Below are positions 1 through 10,664 of a stretch of DNA of 64,000 nucleotides, in pieces. Source of the stretch: Candidatus Heimdallarchaeota archaeon. GTDB lineage: Archaea > Asgardarchaeota > Heimdallarchaeia > Hodarchaeales > Hodarchaeaceae. The position numbers and the translations under genes were made by a program. Location: contig CP070695.1 of the NCBI GenBank assembly GCA_020353515.1, positions 1,419,216 to 1,483,215 of the forward strand, given 5' to 3'. Within the stretch, counting starts at the first letter, position 1, and each line of letters opens with the position of its first letter. The notes beneath the pieces were generated by a model that worked only from the letters and a program-made list of their open reading frames with translations, was not told the origin of the DNA and searched no databases.

Positions 1-1381
1 TAAGAGCAATTTCTGGTGATGGTTGAAAACGTGTTGGCTCACTCAATAATTTCTCTAGCTCAATAGGAGAAATCCGTATAATATTTGCTAAATATTCAAT
101 CGATCTGAATTTTGAGGAAATCATACGCTTAACTTCTTGACTCCACCATTCCTCAGTCCAAGCAGACAATTCAATAGTTTCTGTAGCTGGAATATCATCT
201 GGAGAAAGTAAAATGTCTCCCATTTCCCAGATCTGAGTTACATCACTTTCTACTTCAATGATTCTGGTTAAGGATTCAATCCTCTCACTAGAACCATCTT
301 TAAATTCAACTAGAGGACCTGTTAGGGTTGAAACTGGGAAAACTGTAAGGGGTCGTTCCATGAAATCAATTTTAATGCTCGTGCCTGGAGACATCATTTC
401 TGAAAGATACATTGTCACTGGATGAACTCCCGCGGCACCTTGGCCCGTGTTACGTGAATAGCCATATCTTAATCTAAATCCTCCAGGTTTTCCTGATCTT
501 GAGAGTAAAGGCTGTGTCCCACGAACCTCGTTTCTTCCAAATTCATGTTTTTTCCTTCTTATCCCTTCAAAAGGGGGTACAAGCCATTCCCACTCAGGAA
601 TACCTGAAGCTAGACGAAGATGAGCGATTGAGTTGATATTATCAATTATTTTATCAAAAGCAACACACATACCCATTCGCAATCTATTTGTCATATTTGG
701 TAAATTTCGATATTTCTTAACTTCAATTCGTTCATACGCTTCCCCAGAAATCTCAACACCGATATTTTGTACTAAAAAGTTGATTAAGTCTTTTCGTAAA
801 TCCCAAGAACGATCATTCATTTTAAAGTAAATTTCTATTTCTTCAACATATCTATTTATCAGTTCTGGGGACGGATTATACCGATTAAGATGTAAAACAT
901 GTCGTATATAATCAGCAATTAGAACTACTAGTCCAACAGTCTCTCCAGTTACATAACGTACTGTATTGGAAAAATATATGGTTAAGTGGTTTGATTTAGA
1001 ACCAATTGAAATCTTTGGAATGCTTTCATGAGGAACTGAGATCAATCCTTGACTTAAAATCACTAAAGAGCTGTGTAGCGCCATTAGTATAAGATTCTCA
1101 CGAGTATCTTTTACAAATCGTCCATTAACAATCTGTTTGGCAATATCTGCAGCTAAAAGAAGAGGACTTTCATGCCAAGAGAGATTTGAAGGGAGATATT
1201 CTTCTAATTTCGGAATATTTAGAATTGCTCCTATCTTCGCTTTTGAAGTAAAAGTAAGTTTGGATTCTATTTTGGATTGAGGGTCGAGCTTTCGGGCTCT
1301 TGCTTGTGTTGCTAATTGAACTTGAGTTTTAAGGACGTTTTTTATATTTTGAAGATATTCTAGAAACTCTTTTTCTATCAT
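1..1381 (-). CDS. DNA polymerase D large subunit (DP2/PolC) homolog, highly divergent; N-terminal 460 aa, runs off the window edge
   Basis: Translated by hand, not in the ORF track. ATG at 1381 with an AGAGGA SD-like site, open to position 1. DP2 landmarks in the right order: ARARKLDP, LIADYIR, RYVEEIEIY, YRNLPNMTNRLRMGMC, WEWL, PGGFRLRYGYSRNTG, GVHPVTMYL, GPLVEFKDGS, GDILLS, EEWW. Confidence 0.9.
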   Translation of the reverse strand, partial: MIEKEFLEYLQNIKNVLKTQVQLATQARARKLDPQSKIESKLTFTSKAKIGAILNIPKLEEYLPSNLSWHESPLLLAADIAKQIVNGRFVKDTRENLILMALHSSLVILSQGLISVPHESIPKISIGSKSNHLTIYFSNTVRYVTGETVGLVVLIADYIRHVLHLNRYNPSPELINRYVEEIEIYFKMNDRSWDLRKDLINFLVQNIGVEISGEAYERIEVKKYRNLPNMTNRLRMGMCVAFDKIIDNINSIAHLRLASGIPEWEWLVPPFEGIRRKKHEFGRNEVRGTQPLLSRSGKPGGFRLRYGYSRNTGQGAAGVHPVTMYLSEMMSPGTSIKIDFMERPLTVFPVSTLTGPLVEFKDGSSERIESLTRIIEVESDVTQIWEMGDILLSPDDIPATETIELSAWTEEWWSQEVKRMISSKFRSIEYLANIIRISPIELEKLLSEPTRFQPSPEIAL

Positions 1382-1387
1382 TTCCTC

Positions 1388-2110
1388 TCACGATAAAATA
1401 TGAACACCATTCATCAAGGTTACATTAAGTATGCCCAGATTATCTAGGTTGTTTTCCCCCTCAAAGTAATATATGCCAGTATAGTCTGAACTGGAAGAGG
1501 GAATAAGATAGTGAGTAGTATTAAAGATATAGATTGAAGAAGCATCTACGTTTTCGAGCTGTTTTCCTCTTGATTGTTGAATGATAACTTTATTACCCTG
1601 AATTTCAACACGTCCAATAAAAACAATAGAAAAGGCTTCATCAATGGTGAACGTAGACGAGACAGCACTCATCCTCAAATGCAGTTCTGCTTGAATCTGA
1701 CTAGAATAAACAGTTCCGAAGCTGTCTGATACATTCCCATAAGGAGCTAATTGTGCGCTAAGATTGAAGTTGTGATTAGATAATTGGAATTCTGAAGTAA
1801 CCCCTCTCGCAGAGTAGAGTGTTTCGATTCCATTTAAAAAATCATTTATTCTAGTGATGGCTGTACTGGGAGTCAATGTTGTACCATTCTCAGAGTATTC
1901 AGTTAAAATTAGTTCCAAGTAATTCTGAATTTCACGTTTTGAGTCCAAGTATGGTTCTCGTAAGGTTTCCCGATCAAATTCGATTCTTTCGGCTCCAAGA
2001 TTCATCAAAGCAGAGGTCATCATTACAACATAAACAGCTATTAACATCGTTGCTAAGATGAACATCTGACCTCTATGTTTTTTCGAGTATTTGAATCCTG
2101 GAATTCCCAT
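1388..2110 (-). CDS. Pilin-like protein with class III signal peptide
   Basis: KKHRG|QMFILATMLIAVYVVMM: basic leader, RG|Q cleavage site, hydrophobic helix; lies in the pilus operon. Confidence 0.75.
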   Translation of the reverse strand: MGIPGFKYSKKHRGQMFILATMLIAVYVVMMTSALMNLGAERIEFDRETLREPYLDSKREIQNYLELILTEYSENGTTLTPSTAITRINDFLNGIETLYSARGVTSEFQLSNHNFNLSAQLAPYGNVSDSFGTVYSSQIQAELHLRMSAVSSTFTIDEAFSIVFIGRVEIQGNKVIIQQSRGKQLENVDASSIYIFNTTHYLIPSSSSDYTGIYYFEGENNLDNLGILNVTLMNGVHILS

Positions 2111-2626
2111 CTAGAATTTCTCCCATAAATATAGTTGTACCAGATATTGCGTAGTATATTGCCCAAACGTGGCTGAAGTAAACGAACCTAAATGGTAATT
2201 CGCCACAACTCCTTTTCCTCCTTGTTGGAGTGCAACAAGGGCTGTTGAAGACCCAATAACGCTAAAAAAATCTTCATTAATTGTACCATTAACTATTTCA
2301 TGAGCAATTAGGGCATAGTCAATATTTTTAGACACTATAGTAGTAATATATTCATTCAGTAGATTTTTGTAACTTAAAAATTCCTGTTCATATCTAGTGT
2401 CTCCATAAAGATATATAACAGGTCTTAATAATCCTGCTTCATCTGAAGCTGCAAGAATATCTGTTGCTGTTTGATCCAAACCAGTAAGATTTGAATAAGA
2501 CGATAAGGTCTGATTTGTTGCCCCTATCAATAGAAGAGCAAGAACAAGCATTAATGCTACTGAAACAAGTGTTTCTGCAATCTGTAGTTGTCCTCTATGT
2601 TTATTCATTTGTTCTATTTGCTCCAT
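2111..2626 (-). CDS. Minor pilin-like protein with class III signal peptide
   Basis: KHRG|QLQIAETLVSVALMLVLALL. Confidence 0.78.
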   Translation of the reverse strand: MEQIEQMNKHRGQLQIAETLVSVALMLVLALLLIGATNQTLSSYSNLTGLDQTATDILAASDEAGLLRPVIYLYGDTRYEQEFLSYKNLLNEYITTIVSKNIDYALIAHEIVNGTINEDFFSVIGSSTALVALQQGGKGVVANYHLGSFTSATFGQYTTQYLVQLYLWEKF

Positions 2627-3774
2627 AAGGTTAATTGACAGCTCATTAACGTACCTCTGACAATAATGGGATAGAATTTTGATAACATTGATTTTGTTCT
2701 GGTACCAGGAATTTCTTCTCCAAATACCTGGTTAAATATCCCACCAGTCGAAACACGATCAAGAATCACAGGATATGATCCTATTTTTACTTGATACTGG
2801 TTATCAGTTATAGCAATACTGAGAAAGGCAACCAAACCTTCATTCGGAATTGAAACTGTCTCATTGCCATACGAGGCTGTTTCTAAATTTATAGTTTTTT
2901 TCGAGTAGCCCGATGTGGTATTTTGATATATGATAGAGAGAAAATGCGAATCAGGACTTATTGGTAAATTATCTGATGCTAAAAAACTAGTAGAATTGAT
3001 ACCTCCTCCCCAAATAGTTGTACTTGAAGATGGACCAATGAAAACTACTTCAGAAGTTGGATCATTGAAACTCCAGTTCATACACCAAAGAGGACCTTTT
3101 TCTACAATGATAAATACTATATGTTCTCCCCCTGGGACATTTTCAGTGGGATTTGATAGCTGGAGAGAAGTTTCTCCGTTGGAATTAGTTAATGTTGCTC
3201 CTTCAGGAATCACATTGCCATTAGTCAGATCAATGGTAAAGAAATTAACTAAAGCATCTGCAATAGATATATTATAAAGATTTTTTACATTTACTTGAGC
3301 GAAATTTGTAGAAGAAGCATTTACTTCTGCATTTAATAAAGGATAGAATCCTAATCGGAAATTAAAATCCCTATCTAAACCGATTGTCTCCTTAAGAGTG
3401 TCATAATCAAACATTGTGTATCCTGATACACCAGATGAATCCTTAAACGTTAATCGCGCTATTTTTGCACTATCTAAAACAAGATATGACTGTGCATTAC
3501 TATCCGCTAGGCCAAAAGATGCTGGAAGTGATTGATGATAGCCCCAATCAAGATCTCCATCCTCAAAAAGTAATTGACGACCTAAGATATCTAACTCCTC
3601 ATAGGTTATGATTTCCCTTGAACTGGTATTTATACCTGTTTGTACATTAATAACAAGTAAAATTAACTGCGATAACATAAGTAAGAAGAGAAAAAGACTC
3701 ACAACAAAGTCGACAGCTCTAATCTGTCCACGGCGTCGTTTTTTAAGTCTTGGAAAGTTCATCTTGTTACCCAT
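2614..3774 (-). CDS. Large pilin-like/adhesin protein with class III signal peptide
   Basis: KKRRRG|QIRAVDFVVSLFLFLLML followed by a beta-rich extracellular region. Confidence 0.75.
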   Translation of the reverse strand: MGNKMNFPRLKKRRRGQIRAVDFVVSLFLFLLMLSQLILLVINVQTGINTSSREIITYEELDILGRQLLFEDGDLDWGYHQSLPASFGLADSNAQSYLVLDSAKIARLTFKDSSGVSGYTMFDYDTLKETIGLDRDFNFRLGFYPLLNAEVNASSTNFAQVNVKNLYNISIADALVNFFTIDLTNGNVIPEGATLTNSNGETSLQLSNPTENVPGGEHIVFIIVEKGPLWCMNWSFNDPTSEVVFIGPSSSTTIWGGGINSTSFLASDNLPISPDSHFLSIIYQNTTSGYSKKTINLETASYGNETVSIPNEGLVAFLSIAITDNQYQVKIGSYPVILDRVSTGGIFNQVFGEEIPGTRTKSMLSKFYPIIVRGTLMSCQLTLWSK

Positions 3775-3804
3775 TTATCGATGTAAATAATCCATTTAAA
3801 CTCG

Positions 3805-4260
3805 CTAAGATATGACATCCTCGGTAGAAGAACCAACATTCGCGACCTCAAGTTGAATAACTATCTCTTGGATACGATCTTTTAATTCTAACATTGTTGT
3901 TTCCAATTCTGTCAATTGTAATCCCTTCTCTAAGAGAGAGGTGGCTTGTGAAATTAGTTCATCAGCTTTCTGGGTTTTATCTGTCTTCATTGTTGAGGTT
4001 AGCTCTGTTAAATTATTCATTTTTTTCATAATTTCGGAGATATTGTTTTCAATTTCAGAGATTCTTTTTTCCAGAGGGGCTAGATCAACTTCAACAGGAC
4101 CAGCTTGAGGAGCAGATACAGATTTTAAGGCTGGAGATTTGGGTGTTGCTCCACCTGTTCCCATCCCCTGAACCATCAAAAACTCCATATTGGTTAGTTT
4201 ATCTTCTAGAGCTGAAACTTTATCTAGTAATTCTGTGAGCATTTTTTCTTCTTTTCCCAT
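3805..4260 (-). CDS. Coiled-coil hypothetical protein in the pilus operon
   Basis: Heptad-rich L/E/K segments around a Gly/Pro linker; no TM helix. Confidence 0.65.
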   Translation of the reverse strand: MGKEEKMLTELLDKVSALEDKLTNMEFLMVQGMGTGGATPKSPALKSVSAPQAGPVEVDLAPLEKRISEIENNISEIMKKMNNLTELTSTMKTDKTQKADELISQATSLLEKGLQLTELETTMLELKDRIQEIVIQLEVANVGSSTEDVIS

Positions 4261-4283
4261 GAAAATCGACCTCGAATTACATA

Positions 4284-5282
4284 TTATACCAGACCAAATA
4301 GTGAGAAAATCTGTGAGATAATATCTGCTATTAGGATCTTAAAGATCACGTAGCAAATTATTAAAAGAATACAGGAATATTTTAGTCCAAGATTTGCATT
4401 TCCTTGCCCCATCTTACCTGCTATGAGACCTGCAAATATTGCTTCAACAACCATTAAATGGAAGAAGATTAATTGCATTCCTGCAACATTAAATGGCAAT
4501 GCTGCTGTTAATGGTTGTTCTTCTGATACTGCTTCTACCATGTTAAGAGCTAAGGTTTGGAAGAAGGAAATGAGTAAAATGATCATCACTAACGAGAAGA
4601 CGATATATGAAACAAAAATTATCCAAGTGAATGGTTTCATCGACCCAAGACGTTCCCTTTTTAATCCAAGAACTTCTGATACGTGTCTATGAGCAGAATC
4701 GAATACATCCTCAATGGCTCCTCCTGAACGTTCAGCCTCTAAGATTAATAGTGATGTTCTTCTCATCAGGGGAGTATCTGTAATTTCCGTTAAACTTCGA
4801 AGTGTTTTACTAAAAGGGATTCCCCAACTGATCTTGGCTGCCATTTTTTTCAATTCAGGAGTAAGAGCTCCGTAATTGTGCTTACTTGCTGACATGATTG
4901 CCCTTGGCAATGGAAGACCAGTCTTTTGAGCGTCAGAAACCTCACGTAACAAGGATGGGATATTTTCATCAATGTTGTCACGCCATTTTTGGTCGGAATG
5001 ATATGCCCAAGCTGGAATAACAATTAAGACAAGAATAGCTACAACAGTTATGTCAATAACATCAAAGAAATTGACAATTGGATCTCTGATAACCTCACTT
5101 ACTTTGTCAAGATAACTGTTATCCATTGGATCTCCCTCTTCTTTTATGGGAGGTTCTACTGGAAAAATGTGATTTAAAACTGGGATATAAAAGTAGAAAA
5201 AGGCTGTTCCAGATGCTATTATGAAGAAAAGTATCGATATAATCCAGATCCACCGTTCACGTTTTTTTGTTAATTTTCCCAT
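4284..5282 (-). CDS. Type II secretion system F-family membrane platform protein (TadC/FlaJ-like)
   Basis: IDENIPSLLREV...YGALTPELKKMAAKISWG...EAERSGG, several TM helices, GLIAGKM. Confidence 0.9.
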   Translation of the reverse strand: MGKLTKKRERWIWIISILFFIIASGTAFFYFYIPVLNHIFPVEPPIKEEGDPMDNSYLDKVSEVIRDPIVNFFDVIDITVVAILVLIVIPAWAYHSDQKWRDNIDENIPSLLREVSDAQKTGLPLPRAIMSASKHNYGALTPELKKMAAKISWGIPFSKTLRSLTEITDTPLMRRTSLLILEAERSGGAIEDVFDSAHRHVSEVLGLKRERLGSMKPFTWIIFVSYIVFSLVMIILLISFFQTLALNMVEAVSEEQPLTAALPFNVAGMQLIFFHLMVVEAIFAGLIAGKMGQGNANLGLKYSCILLIICYVIFKILIADIISQIFSLFGLV

Positions 5283-5303
5283 TGCTTGTAACCTCTTTTT
5301 CTA

Positions 5304-6212
5304 CTAAACCTCTCGTGAAATCGTAGAGATCAACAAAATCATTACAACTAGCAAAATAGGCATTATTAAGTAAGTTAATAGCAACATTATGACAGTTAAA
5401 ATTTCTATCTCTGGTGAAATAACAGCAAGAATTGCGATAATAACAACAAAAAACAAAGGAGCAACCACTCCTAAAATCATAAATATTTCCGCTAATATTC
5501 CTAACTGCTCAATGAACTCCTTAGTTTCCTCTTCCTTCATTTTCATTAAAGCTTTTGCTTCAGCAGAGAGATAAAAGGTTAAATCTCCTCCACTTGTGAC
5601 CGTTGCTGACATTCCATCTAAAAATTTAGAAAATCGTTCGGAAGGGGATCTTTCACTTGCAGTACGTAACGCCTTTAGAATGTCATATCCAAAGATTTCG
5701 ATATCCCTTGTAATTCGCTTACTCTCTTTAGAGATTTCTGGAGCAACTGAGGCTTCTCCTGCGAGTGAATAAAACAATCTGTTTGGAGGGACTCCTGAAC
5801 TCGACATAGCGGAAAGATATGAAGCAGTAGAAGGTAATCCTGACTCTATCAATATTTTACGATCAGCGGCCTTCATCTGTGGCCAATAGAGGAATGGTAG
5901 ATATGCAACAATGCTTATTATTACCCCAATGACTATTCCAAGTAAGATGGACGGAAAAAGCTGATTTTGAATATTTGCAGCTTGAAGCAATAGTATACTG
6001 GTTGTTATAATGATAAAAGACAAAATTCCCACAAGAATCGAACTAAAAATGGCACTTCCTAGATAAGCACGAACAGAAATATCCATACCTGCTTTTTTTA
6101 GACTTGTATTTAGTCTTTCAAAGCGTCCTTTTTCAATCCAGGGTTCAAGAAATCTGCCAAATCTGAGATAACCGACTCTTCTAATGACCTTACTCACAAG
6201 TAAACACTCCAA
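5304..6212 (-). CDS. Type II secretion system F-family membrane platform protein (TadB-like); true start may be the GTG a few codons in
   Basis: YLSAMSSSGVPP, IEIFGYDILKAL, SERSPSERFSKFLDGM, SGGDL. Confidence 0.9.
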   Translation of the reverse strand: MECLLVSKVIRRVGYLRFGRFLEPWIEKGRFERLNTSLKKAGMDISVRAYLGSAIFSSILVGILSFIIITTSILLLQAANIQNQLFPSILLGIVIGVIISIVAYLPFLYWPQMKAADRKILIESGLPSTASYLSAMSSSGVPPNRLFYSLAGEASVAPEISKESKRITRDIEIFGYDILKALRTASERSPSERFSKFLDGMSATVTSGGDLTFYLSAEAKALMKMKEEETKEFIEQLGILAEIFMILGVVAPLFFVVIIAILAVISPEIEILTVIMLLLTYLIMPILLVVMILLISTISREV

Positions 6213-6218
6213 ATGATC

Positions 6219-7727
6219 TTAAATTGCTTTTAACTCTCTTTTTGCACGATCAACTGTTTCAAGAGCACTCTGGTAATAACTGTTAATTACTTCAGACACC
6301 TGAGAAAAATGGGCTAACTTCTTTTTAACCATCCACCTTAAGATGGTTTTTCTGCGCTCAAGTTCATCGAAAACTTGGGCCTCAGTCAAACCTTGAGCTT
6401 CTTGAATACCTTCTAAGGCGTAGGATCGGCCATAGTTGATAAATGCATCCTCACGAGCATTCCATCCAAAAACTTTGTTCGTTATCAATTCTGTCGTTAC
6501 AGGATCTATTCCTACGATTTCAGTGCATTCGATCACTCGTCGTACTTGTTTGTCACCACGACGGACCTTTCGAAGGACGAGAAGGATATTTAAGGTTTGA
6601 ATTAAAGTTCTTGGAATATTCATTGGTTCATTCTCTAGACGTCTAATAGTTCCAGTTACGCTATCACCGTGAATTGTCCCCATTCCAGTGTGACCAGTAG
6701 CCATTGCTTGAAAGAGATTATACGCTTCTGCTCCTCGTACTTCTCCAACAAAAAGGTAATCTGGTCTTTGGCGAAGTGCTGCACGTAGAAGGTCATACAT
6801 TGAGACTTCTCCTCGACGAGTTCCATCAGCTTCACGCCCTCCATAACCTTCTCGTGCCACAGCAGGAATCCAGTTTTCATGGGGAATATGAAGTTCTGCT
6901 GTGTCTTCAATCGAAACGATTTTCATTCCAGGTCTGATATACATAGCGAGACTATTGAGGAGCGATGTTTTTCCTGCTGCTGTACCTCCTGCAATAACAA
7001 TGGAATTTCTATTTTCTAAGATATACCATAAGAACGCAGCCAAATCCTCATCAATGGTGTTAAAAATTACCATATCTGTTATTGTTAATGGATCAGATCG
7101 AAATTTTCTGATAGTAAAAGTACTCCCTCGCTGGGTTACCTCACGACCATAGGTAAGCTGAAGTCGGCTGCCATCTGGTAATGCAGCATCTAGTAAAGGT
7201 CTCGCTACACTGATATGGCGTCCAGCTCGTTGAGCTAATTTGATGATAAATGCATCCAAGTTGTCCTCCTCCTCAAATTTAACATTTGTTTGGATACTTT
7301 CAAATTTCCGGTGCCAAATATAAACAGGAATTCCTACTCCATCACAAGATATATCTTCGACATTGTGGTCCTTTAGCATTGCATCAATCGGACCGAATCC
7401 GACGAAATCACGAGTAATATGATAATTAATCTTATCGAAGGTTTTCTCATCTAATTTTAGTCCATAATCTTTAGCAATTCTAATTACCTTAGATCTAAGG
7501 TAATCACGTGCAACCTCAGGATTTTTAAGGACATTGAAATCTACATCCAATTCTTCTTCGAGAATATTTTTAATCATATCTAAGATTTCTTTCTCTTTAG
7601 TGCTTAAAGGAACTTCAACAACAGTATATTTAGTCTGTTTGGTTTCAGGGTCGGTTGCAACCAACGCATAACTGAAGGGGGGGATTAATGGATATGTCTC
7701 TCGAATTAGACTACTTGATTCTGCCAT
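6219..7727 (-). CDS. Type IV pilus/secretion ATPase (FlaI/VirB11/TadA family)
   Basis: Walker A GGTAAGKTS, SIEDTAEL, ALRQRPDYLFVGEVRG, TGHTGMGTIHG. Confidence 0.96.
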   Translation of the reverse strand: MAESSSLIRETYPLIPPFSYALVATDPETKQTKYTVVEVPLSTKEKEILDMIKNILEEELDVDFNVLKNPEVARDYLRSKVIRIAKDYGLKLDEKTFDKINYHITRDFVGFGPIDAMLKDHNVEDISCDGVGIPVYIWHRKFESIQTNVKFEEEDNLDAFIIKLAQRAGRHISVARPLLDAALPDGSRLQLTYGREVTQRGSTFTIRKFRSDPLTITDMVIFNTIDEDLAAFLWYILENRNSIVIAGGTAAGKTSLLNSLAMYIRPGMKIVSIEDTAELHIPHENWIPAVAREGYGGREADGTRRGEVSMYDLLRAALRQRPDYLFVGEVRGAEAYNLFQAMATGHTGMGTIHGDSVTGTIRRLENEPMNIPRTLIQTLNILLVLRKVRRGDKQVRRVIECTEIVGIDPVTTELITNKVFGWNAREDAFINYGRSYALEGIQEAQGLTEAQVFDELERRKTILRWMVKKKLAHFSQVSEVINSYYQSALETVDRAKRELKAI

Positions 7728-7870
7728 TTATTTGTAGCTCCTACTTTTTTTCTCTTCTAGATCCAAGAGTGATGTTTTTTTTTAGATTATTTTTTCCTAG
7801 GTAAATATTTCCTACTGATAATATTTTTTTGATTTGGATAAAGGTAATCATAACTTTTAGTTTAATCTAC

Positions 7871-8323
7871 TCAAGAAATGGTTATTACGATATTATTTCC
7901 GTTTTTTTCTATATGTAAGGCCAATAGAGTATTTACACTTTCAAATATTGAATCTGATGTTTCAATAATGTATTTTGGGGCCACTGTAAAGATTTTTATC
8001 TGATCAACGTCTCCATTCGAGGAAAAACCGTGTAAAATGATCTGATTGTCAGAGGAGTTATAGATCTCAATAGAATACGGAGACATTTCCCCTATGACAG
8101 CTGGTAGTTCTAGTTGTTGTTCGATCAACTGACTACCGTCTGTTGAAAGAAGTAGTGATTGCTGAATTTGTTTTTGAATTAAATCAAGAATTCGTGTCAT
8201 TTCCACATCTGCAATATTCTCCCGAAATTGGTCGCTTAATGTTAAGAACATGAGATTTGTGATAATAACCATGTTCAAACCAAGAATAAAGATAACAATA
8301 AATGTGATATATTGAGATGCCAT
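7871..8323 (-). CDS. Pilin-like membrane-anchored protein
   Basis: N-terminal hydrophobic helix (ASQYITFIVIFILG) and a LELPAVIG..PYSIEI pattern; operon context. No basic leader, and an in-frame TAA lies two codons upstream of the ATG. Confidence 0.6.
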   Translation of the reverse strand: MASQYITFIVIFILGLNMVIITNLMFLTLSDQFRENIADVEMTRILDLIQKQIQQSLLLSTDGSQLIEQQLELPAVIGEMSPYSIEIYNSSDNQIILHGFSSNGDVDQIKIFTVAPKYIIETSDSIFESVNTLLALHIEKNGNNIVITIS

Positions 8324-8349
8324 ATATTATTCCACGATTTTTGTATTAT

Positions 8350-9291
8350 TTAAGATGTTGAGAGACCTACTTCATATACTAATGTTTGAACCACAATATT
8401 GAAGTATTGAAGATTAAGCCCTTGTATGGTTTGTGTACTCCAAATGGATGTAGTTAATGTTCCTGATGGTTGAGCATTATCCCAAACTAATTCTAAAGCT
8501 CCAATTGAGCTGTCTTCTGGTAAAGTATATGGAGTAGAATAGCTATTATAAGAATGAATTGTAATATGTTGATATTGGCTTCGAATAGCTTCAAAATCCG
8601 CCGAAAGCAGGATCAAAAAGACCTCAAAGCGTATTTCGGGATCTGGTTGGGTTGAAATAGTTAAATAAATAGATATTCGATAGTTCAATGTTACATGGTG
8701 TCTTCTATCATCGAGATGGCTTAAAGTAAGGTTAGTTAGATCGAGATAATCAGTTGAGGAAAAAGTACCTGAAACAAAAATTGGATCACGAATTTTATAG
8801 GGGTCTGGTCCTGTTAAATATTTCGTGGTTCCACGAGGAATGACAGCTCTCGGACTGTTATAGGTCCAATCTAGCACTCCGATCGTTAGAAATCCAGTGA
8901 TATCATCAGTTAAATCTTCAAATAGGTTATATACGAGGTTTTCATCTTGATCAAGCAACCTTAATCGATAAGAATATCGTGCAGGATCAAATTCAACCCG
9001 GCCAGCAGGTTTATTAAAGAGAACAGTCCGAAAACCTCCAGGAGCACCACTTTCACTTATCAAGGATTTTATTGTTGTATCCAACTCTAAGAAACTATTA
9101 CTAGTTGTTGCTATCGCTTCTTCACTCTGAGCCTGTTGTATATATGGGACAACTTGAACGAAAGTGATCATGACTCCTGTAATGATTAGACCGAATATGA
9201 TAACTGTCGCTAGAACAGGAGAAACACCACGTGTTGTCCGAAAAATTGGGTTAGTTTTTAGTTTCAGGTTAGTGATAATAGCTTTATTCAA
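8350..9291 (-). CDS. Archaeal type IV pilin (archaellin/pilin N-terminal domain)
   Basis: RTTRG|VSPVLATVIIFGLII matches the archaeal class III signal consensus (RG|xSPVIA). Confidence 0.88.
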   Translation of the reverse strand: MNKAIITNLKLKTNPIFRTTRGVSPVLATVIIFGLIITGVMITFVQVVPYIQQAQSEEAIATTSNSFLELDTTIKSLISESGAPGGFRTVLFNKPAGRVEFDPARYSYRLRLLDQDENLVYNLFEDLTDDITGFLTIGVLDWTYNSPRAVIPRGTTKYLTGPDPYKIRDPIFVSGTFSSTDYLDLTNLTLSHLDDRRHHVTLNYRISIYLTISTQPDPEIRFEVFLILLSADFEAIRSQYQHITIHSYNSYSTPYTLPEDSSIGALELVWDNAQPSGTLTTSIWSTQTIQGLNLQYFNIVVQTLVYEVGLSTS

Positions 9292-9629
9292 GTTCGATCC
9301 CTTTCTATCGTTTTAAATGCATAATCACTATAAACAAGTCATTCTTCACGGATATATTATCAAAGATGTAATGATTTAAGGATTTTTGTATTCCCCAGAA
9401 AATTACTACACATTCTAAATTAACTCTTCTAAAGGGCAAAAAAATTCTTGTAAAGAATTAAGGGGAAGCCATAAAGAATTTACTCCAAAGAATAGAAAAG
9501 TCTTTCATAAAATTTCCTATTTTGTTTTATTCCTCAAAAGCAGAAAAGATTTAAGGAGTTCATAGGTTCAAAAAAATGACTTTTCTCAATAATCCTATGA
9601 GAGAATCTCCCTCTAAAACTGGTATGATA

Positions 9630-10664
9630 ATGGCACCGAAGAAAAAAACTGAAACTATTGAAGCAACAAAAACAACAAAAGTTGATAAAACGACTAAAGC
9701 TGTGACATCCATTACGGATTTACCTGGAATAGGCCCCTCCACAGCTGCAAAATTAGTAGAGGCTGGTTTCTCAACCTTAGAATCCATTGCAACTGTTTCA
9801 GTTGGTGAGTTGACCTCAATCGCAAGTATGGGTGAGAAAACGGTAAAAAAGATAATCGAAGCAGCACGAGAAGCACTTGATATCGATTTTGAAACTGCCA
9901 AAACTGTGTTGGCTCGTCGTAAGGATTTGGCTAAAGTTACGACTGGTAGTCAAAAACTAGATGAACTATTTGGTGGTGGAATTGAAACTGGATCCGTAAC
10001 GGAGCTTTTTGGCGAGTTTCGGACAGGAAAAACCCAAATTGCCCACCAACTCTGTGTGACCGTTCAGTTGCCCCGTGAAAAAGGTGGATTACGAGAAAGT
10101 GACAATTATCCAAAGGTAGTGTATATCGATAGCGAAAGCACGTTTCGTCCAGAAAGAATACTCTCAATGGCAAGTCGTTGGCAGGATGAATTAGATGAAG
10201 ATTTGTTGTTAGAAAACATTTTACACGGACGTGCTCACAATTCCGATCACCAAATGGTATTAGTAGAAAAAATGATTAAGGATTATTTGCCTACTGAGAA
10301 TGTTAAATTATTAGTAGTTGATTCTTTAATTTCACATTTTCGTGCTGAATATGTTGGAAGAGGGACTTTAGCAACACGGCAACAAAAGCTTAACCAACAC
10401 ATCCACACCATTCTCCGAGCTGCAGAAATTGGGAATCTAGCTGTCATTGTCACAAATCAAGTCCATGCCAAACCTGACCAATTTTTCGGAGATCCCACCC
10501 ATCCAGTAGGAGGACATATCGTTGCTCATGCAGCGCAAACGCGGGTATACCTTCGTAAATCAAAAGGTGAACGTAGAATAGCCCGAATAGTTGATAGTCC
10601 TCTCCTTCCTGAAAACGAAGCAGTCTTTGGATTAGCGGAAAATGGGATTATAGATGTAACATAA
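9630..10664 (+). CDS. radA: DNA repair and recombination protein RadA
   Basis: HhH N-domain LPGIGP, Walker [34 protein letters not shown]. Likely start MAPKKK at 9630; the ORF track opens at 9576. Confidence 0.97.

Follow-up and report, generated by a model that had tools for sequence, protein, structure and literature searches.

[quoted passage not shown] We put the probability of this reading at roughly 70%. Most archaea depend on PolD as their essential replicase, and the only relics of it in the eukaryotic replicative polymerases are their B subunits, which derive from DP1, and a Zn-finger C-terminal domain, which derives from DP2. The gene that led to this reading begins in the window, by which we mean the whole stretch of 64,000 nucleotides that was analysed (G000:C1:1419216-1483215) in a closed host genome of 4.94 Mb. 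Close relatives of this genome place it in Hodarchaeales, in agreement with a sequence-only reading of the window that had assigned the DNA to a lineage close to eukaryotes.

The part of DP2 that lies in the window matches the Pfam families PolC_DP2_N (E 3.7e-43) and PolC_DP2_central (E 5.8e-30). The full protein, P0002, scores above the gathering cut-offs of PF03833, PF24844 and PF24846 (145.6, 237.2 and 268.3 bits against a cut-off of 24.3), and it falls under both NCBIfam equivalog cut-offs, with 782.3 against 1269 for NF003103 and 687.9 against 702.15 for TIGR00354. A canonical Asgard DP2 (P0044) scores 1605 and 1490 on the same two models. The sub-cut-off scores fit with the NCBI label 'hypothetical protein' on many of these genes. 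Annotation pipelines call them either that or 'DNA polymerase II large subunit', and neither name tells of a degenerate polymerase site.

Whether DP2 itself or the catalytic-domain family served as query, the genome yielded a single DP2 locus. Exactly one DP2 match was likewise found in 23 of the 24 Hodarchaeales species genomes, the one lacking a match being 71% complete. A second copy or paralog is thus ruled out, and the idea of a second polymerase subunit had to be given up. DP2 frames of 1106-1130 residues are intact in most sampled genomes of the genus; the remainder are contig fragments and one frame with a stop. That stop lies in the single-contig genome of the relative G015, where GGA has become TGA at codon 237, the position of a glycine (Gly237) that is invariant in all other DP2 proteins compared with it. 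It is either a sequencing error or a genuine nonsense mutation. The features discussed here and their coordinates are collected in Table 1.

Table 1. Coordinates of DP2, its altered and retained motifs, its neighbours and the other genes considered. Window positions count from the first letter of the window; G, L and P handles denote genomes, loci and proteins, G000 being the host genome.
Feature	Location	Strand	Remarks
First 460 codons of the gene for DP2, the PolD large subunit	window 2..1381	(-)	open frame from ATG, runs off the left edge of the window
Rest of the DP2 gene, upstream of the window	G000:C1:1417279-1419215		from the genome sequence
Full DP2 gene	L002:8064-11381	(-)	protein P0002, 1106 residues
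SQGLISVPHESI, altered form of the N-terminal-domain motif TEGxxxAPxEGI	window 1019..1054	(-)	altered in every clade member; canonical form kept by the 75 canonical DP2 and by other Heimdallarchaeia
YFSNTVRYVTGET, altered KH-like template-guiding motif	window 938..976	(-)	canonical form AGPIRSAGGT / PIRxxGGT
GGFRLRYGYSRNTG, retained core motif of DPBB-1	window 443..484	(-)	G300, G301, F302, R303, R305, Y306 and G307 kept in the clade
GTSIKIDFMERP, altered basic (b) motif of DPBB-1	window 350..385	(-)	
6-nt spacer GAGGAA, Shine-Dalgarno-like	window 1382..1387	(-)	between the stop of a pilin-like gene and the DP2 ATG
Type IV pilus-like operon	window 1388-9291	(-)	runs into DP2
Two TadC-like platform genes of the operon	window 4284-6212	(-)	
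ATPase of the operon	window 6219-7727	(-)	
radA	window 9576-10664	(+)	divergent from the pilus-like operon
CBS-pair protein, 213 residues	L002:7175-7816	(-)	downstream of DP2, just outside the window; syntenic across the genus
NFACT (ribosome quality control) gene	L002:5114-7150	(+)	convergent, downstream of DP2, just outside the window; syntenic across the genus
DP1 gene	L042:1348-2964	(-)	G000:C1 ~2.72 Mb
Orc1/Cdc6 gene adjoining DP1	L042:69-1313	(+)	G000:C1 ~2.72 Mb
PolB homologue of 773 residues	L045:1432-3750	(-)	G000:C1 ~4.31 Mb
MCM gene	L078/L079; G000:C1:2616392-2618632	(-)	
DP2 gene of G015	L010; G015:C1:2667766-2671077	(-)	frame broken at codon 237

We compared the motifs of 75 canonical DP2 proteins with those of 34 full-length members of the Hodarchaeales clade, mapping residue numbers by alignment to P. 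abyssi DP2 (6hms_B). The motifs TEGxxxAPxEGI, AGPIRSAGGT and xPGKx are near-invariant in the canonical proteins, whereas none of the 34 clade members carries them. DGDED, PGK and PHT are essentially invariant in the canonical set and absent from the clade. The departures from consensus first noticed in the window are therefore genuine and well beyond chance, and translation placed the quoted strings, comprising the four motifs of Table 1 as well as PDDIPATET and EEWW, at verified coordinates.

The upstream sequence contains the catalytic site, whose DGDED motif had been singled out for inspection, and this motif is not intact. The acidic motif NCDGDED reads NCNGDID, in which N871 corresponds to D956, D873 to D958 and I874 to E959, and D960 is kept. 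Catalysis is reported to depend on two aspartates, D956 and D958 (PMC4996933). The residues K386, R389 and K392 of the basic motif, defined in the same study and in PMC7708050, lie in the canonical stretch GTQLKTERPGKG, instead of which P0002 has GTSIKIDFMERP. Here KTERPGK has become KIDFMER: K386 is kept as K337, R389 is replaced by F340 and K392 by R343, and PGK, whose replacement varies within the clade, reads MER. Degeneration is thus partial in this genome, with D958, D960 and K386 kept and K392 changed conservatively to Arg.

Other parts of the polymerase site are altered as well. The steric-gate and selectivity motif PHTSAG reads PFSMVA, with F838 at the position of the steric-gate His, which every clade member has exchanged for Phe, Thr or Ile. 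The definitions of the a, b and s motifs and of the steric gate come from PMC7708050, which reports that loss of the His relaxes sugar selectivity. The KH-like motif PIRxxGGT, whose role at the template was described along with the Zn-III RR motif by Raia et al. 2019 (PMC6355029), reads TVRYVTGET. Since an essential metal ligand, the triphosphate- and DNA-binding Arg, the sugar gate and the template guide are altered together, we infer that the polymerase chemistry has been lost. The C-terminal PIP box (QxxLxxFF-like) is also gone. P0002 ends in GPRPTTLI, a tail conserved as GPRPTTL[IF] with neither the Gln nor the aromatic pair, and coupling to PCNA may have been lost with the box. The DNA-contact lysines of Clamp-1, K1125 and K1129, align to Thr in P0002, and Lys is found nearby in other clade members.

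Much of the protein outside these motifs is retained. There are 193 positions that are near-invariant in the canonical DP2 proteins, and 127 of them are kept in at least 80% of the 34 clade members. The other 66 are lost; at many of them a new residue has become fixed throughout the clade, for example G139N, H518F, H1008D, D1012K and N1016S. The kept positions include the four Cys of Zn-I and the cores of both double-psi beta-barrels (DPBB). The C-terminal zinc fingers, which had also been marked for a check, keep the four Cys of Zn-III (C1027, C1030, C1042 and C1045). R1035, R1036 and P1038 of the RRxP loop, which grips DP1, are kept too, and binding to DP1 is predicted from these residues. 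An AF2 model of DP2, built on an alignment of 109 sequences, reached a mean pLDDT of 90.7 and a pTM of 0.89. In the PDB it is matched best by full-length P. abyssi DP2 chains (Foldseek, TM 0.85 over ~1195 columns). That fold, Zn sites and DP1 interface have all been retained suggests that the DP1-DP2 complex has been kept for binding and not for synthesis.

The same substitutions were found in all sampled orthologues of the lineage. Two of the three observations that the sequence-only reading had listed as speaking against it were thus made, namely a single DP2 copy and lineage-wide changes; the third, an intact DGDED motif, was not. In ten genomes from three other families of Heimdallarchaeia the canonical ERPGKG, PHTSAG, AGPIRSAGGT and NCDGDED are present, the last often split by an intein. 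In a maximum-likelihood DP2 tree the clade is monophyletic (SH-aLRT 100) and includes the B3_Heim protein P0038. The stem leading to it from canonical DP2 measures ~2.2 substitutions per site, against 0.04-0.3 for branches between canonical DP2 of different phyla. By a rough comparison, the path from the clade to its class-mates is about twice that between canonical DP2 of different phyla. Fast evolution of the whole genome was rejected as the cause: in the same genomes, a canonical PolB shares 40-45% identity with that of other Heimdallarchaeia and DP2 only 32-33%, which again is a rough comparison. MCM was dropped as a rate comparator because its gene probably carries an intein; it forms an open frame of 1221 residues in which the Pfam MCM match falls into two pieces.

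The degree of degeneration differs within the order. Most of the clade (~26 of the 34 members) conserves NGD[IV]D, and K337 (=K386) is also kept in most members. A subclade that includes B3_Heim reads SCNG[AV][TSN]D, having lost both catalytic Asp, and has lost K386 too. The DP2 homologues of the order's other family (L031 and L032, from G020 and G019) are more degenerate, with TANGDID and NVFLGAV and 22-27% identity. Their frames are long and open nonetheless, and their end branches measure 3.7 and 6.3 in a tree in which the position of these two very long rows is unreliable. A metagenome protein that is 75% identical to P0002 (P0013) is the sole clade member with NCDGDID. It sits within a group of NCNGDID sequences and, like them, has none of the basic, steric-gate and KH motifs; its NCDGDID appears to be a variant or to stem from a one-step reversion.

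The clade is under purifying selection. Whole-gene dN/dS was 0.09-0.14 (Nei-Gojobori, orthologue pairs with dS 0.35-1.35), and every region was constrained, most of all DPBB-2, the former catalytic domain, with 0.055-0.074. This bears out the proposal that the intact frame of 460 codons reflects selection and not decay. The subclade that lacks D958 and K386 is constrained as well, with values of 0.055-0.094 for the pair L018/L019 and 0.27 for the very close pair L016/L017 (dS 0.06), so whatever function the clade has in common cannot require these residues. The gene had been proposed to be an inactive or neofunctionalised paralog. The evidence supports inactivity or a new function, as selection acts on a protein in which D956 has become Asn and which has lost its basic, steric-gate and KH motifs; it does not support a paralog, in view of the single DP2 copy and of the same substitutions in all orthologues of the lineage.

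DP1, the partner of DP2, is present as a protein of 539 residues, and its gene adjoins that of Orc1/Cdc6, far from DP2. It has diverged in step with DP2, sharing 43-74% identity with DP1 of its own genus and 27-31% with that of other Heimdallarchaeia. Of its phosphodiesterase motifs, I, II, IV and V are intact, and III has changed from GNHD to GEHD, as it has in every sampled DP1 of the genus except one with GERD. With the DP1 of the host genome as query, no DP1 was found in the two genomes of the order's other family (G019 and G020, 80-85% complete).

The genome encodes four PolB proteins. Two of these have intact A and C motifs (DxxSLYP and YGDTDS), and one of the two ends in a PIP box. The third homologue, of 773 residues, has DFLSMYPN as motif A but lacks a DTD motif C and any recognisable Exo I, and judging by these motifs it is probably an inactivated PolB. 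The fourth is 1432 residues long, has the catalytic subunits of Pol epsilon as its best PDB matches and carries a C-terminal CxxC...CxxC. This Pol-epsilon-like PolB was found in 17 of 18 relatives within the genus and in both genomes of the other family, which makes 19 of the 20 sampled genomes with a degenerate DP2. It was found in none of ten other Heimdallarchaeia with a canonical DP2 (E <= 1e-10). Its distribution thus matches that of the degenerate DP2, a match that reflects one clade and one event and so does not amount to independent or statistical support.

With its chemistry lost on the stem of Hodarchaeales, DP2 would form with DP1 a non-catalytic part of the replisome, which might still be exonuclease-competent through DP1. 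Canonical PolD is described as contacting GINS via DP1 and primase and PCNA via DP2 (PMC9023282, PMC8096248 and PMC12680538). The scaffold would join the partners bound by canonical PolD, and DNA synthesis would fall to B-family polymerases, including the Pol-epsilon-like PolB, which is limited to this order among the genomes searched. By analogy with what canonical PolD binds, a role as replisome scaffold seems the most economical one. It is conceivable, although we hold this only tentatively, that DP1 and DP2 together make up a dedicated non-catalytic module of the replisome by which CMG and primase are tethered to B-family polymerases, and that this module is a free-standing counterpart in archaea, or an evolutionary intermediate, of the dead half and B subunit of eukaryotic Pol epsilon. 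If this were true, the module would mark a step from an active PolD to the eukaryotic state, in which only the C-terminal domain of DP2 and DP1 survive.

The conserved NGD[IV]D and K386 and the strong constraint on DPBB-2 suggest that residual or altered activity of the old site is possible in the main subclade. DP2 could then be a still-active polymerase or another nucleotidyl transferase with a modified N-x-D-x-D metal site, its steric-gate, basic and KH changes reflecting a changed substrate such as RNA or short patches. The fixation of many lost canonical positions to new residues is in keeping with this, as is the relaxed sugar selectivity that follows loss of the steric-gate His. We nevertheless consider such an enzyme unlikely. 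D956 is one of the two aspartates reported essential, the constrained orthologues of the B3_Heim-type subclade do without D958 and K386, the basic-motif positions are poorly conserved in the clade (0.47-0.68), and both the KH template-guiding motif and the PIP box are gone. Still less probable, by a wide distance, is a decaying remnant of a PolD made redundant by PolB. The very long stem, the far more degenerate copies of the other family and the stop at the invariant G237 of one relative would fit a pseudogene in progress. Conversely, the intact frames across most of the genus, a dN/dS of ~0.1 in every region, the confident predicted fold and the 127 retained canonical positions argue against it, and the dN/dS contradicts decay for this genus.

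The setting of the gene raises another alternative. A type IV pilus-like operon, whose order is conserved across the genus, runs into DP2 and holds, besides its ATPase and platform genes, a coiled-coil gene and several pilin-like genes with K/RRGQ leaders. DP2 could have been recruited to this operon and act in the uptake or processing of incoming DNA instead of in replication. The DP2 start codon lies only 6 nt past the stop of the last pilin-like gene, and every sampled genome of the genus, with DP2 identity as low as 49%, has the pilin-like genes and DP2 in the same order. However, the CBS-domain gene and NFACT on the other flank are syntenic too, which points to general conservation of gene order and not to a specific tie. 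In the other family of the order an aldolase-like gene, not a pilin gene, lies upstream of DP2. The DP1-binding motif is kept in DP2, and DP1 itself has diverged in parallel and adjoins Orc1/Cdc6, a replication context. We regard a role in the pilus system as quite improbable, and favour the reading of DP2 as a non-catalytic, DP1-binding scaffold of the replisome.

The inactivity of DP2 in Heimdall LC3 and B3, which is the central claim here, is already published. Kazlauskas et al. 2020 (PMC7544198) set a Heimdall_B3/LC3-like group apart from the main DP1 clade by an inactive DP1, the lack of an active DP2 or co-occurring Zn-finger PolBs, stated that AB125 'do encode active DP2 and DP1', and presented the DP2 active site in Supplementary Fig. 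S16. Their group and ours agree: the B3_Heim protein CEE45_06820 (P0038) falls in our clade, the DP2 active site is lacking, DP1 is divergent, and both co-occur with a Pol-epsilon-N-like PolB of group B10 that bears a Zn-finger C-terminal domain. Their analysis differs in covering two MAGs and marking only the location of the active site. New here are the states of the b, s, KH and PIP motifs, the coverage of 34 full-length proteins and 23 of 24 species genomes, the single-copy status, the kept DP1 interface, the dN/dS values, the stem length, the confident structure model and the GNHD to GEHD change in DP1. A literature search for inactive PolD in Hodarchaeales found nothing beyond Kazlauskas et al. 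2020. A 2025 replisome paper (PMC12680538) uses Hodarchaeal DP1 and DP2, and the text available from it makes no mention of inactivation. In an order often placed closest to eukaryotes, a full-length DP2 without its polymerase residues is strongly constrained across the sampled diversity. This offers a testable model for the turn from replicase to scaffold and the handover of synthesis to B-family enzymes.

Compared with canonical PolD DP2 (P. abyssi 6hms, 6t8h and 8ppt; NF003103 and TIGR00354), the Hodarchaeales protein has the same three Pfam domains, fold (TM 0.85), Zn-I and Zn-III sites, RRxP loop and DPBB cores, but D956, R389, PGK, the steric-gate His, the GGT loop of the KH-like motif and the C-terminal PIP box have been lost. 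A likeness of logic only exists with eukaryotic Pol epsilon (Pol2), whose inactivated C-terminal half, with Dpb2, has also lost catalysis and is kept with a B subunit of the DP1 family beside an active Pol-epsilon-N-type PolB. There, however, the dead module has a family-B fold and is fused to the active half, whereas here it is a separate two-barrel family-D protein. In addition, a yeast two-hybrid assay of the C-terminal domain of the Pol-epsilon-like PolB against Hodarchaeal DP1 gave no interaction (PMC12680538). In Aenigmarchaeota and Baldrarchaeia (PMC7544198 and PMC12680538) a PolB likewise takes over from the DP2 module and DP1 is retained. DP2 is gone from these lineages except for its C-terminal domain, which is fused to the PolB (PolB-DP2CTD), whereas in Hodarchaeales it persists as a full-length, separate and constrained protein.
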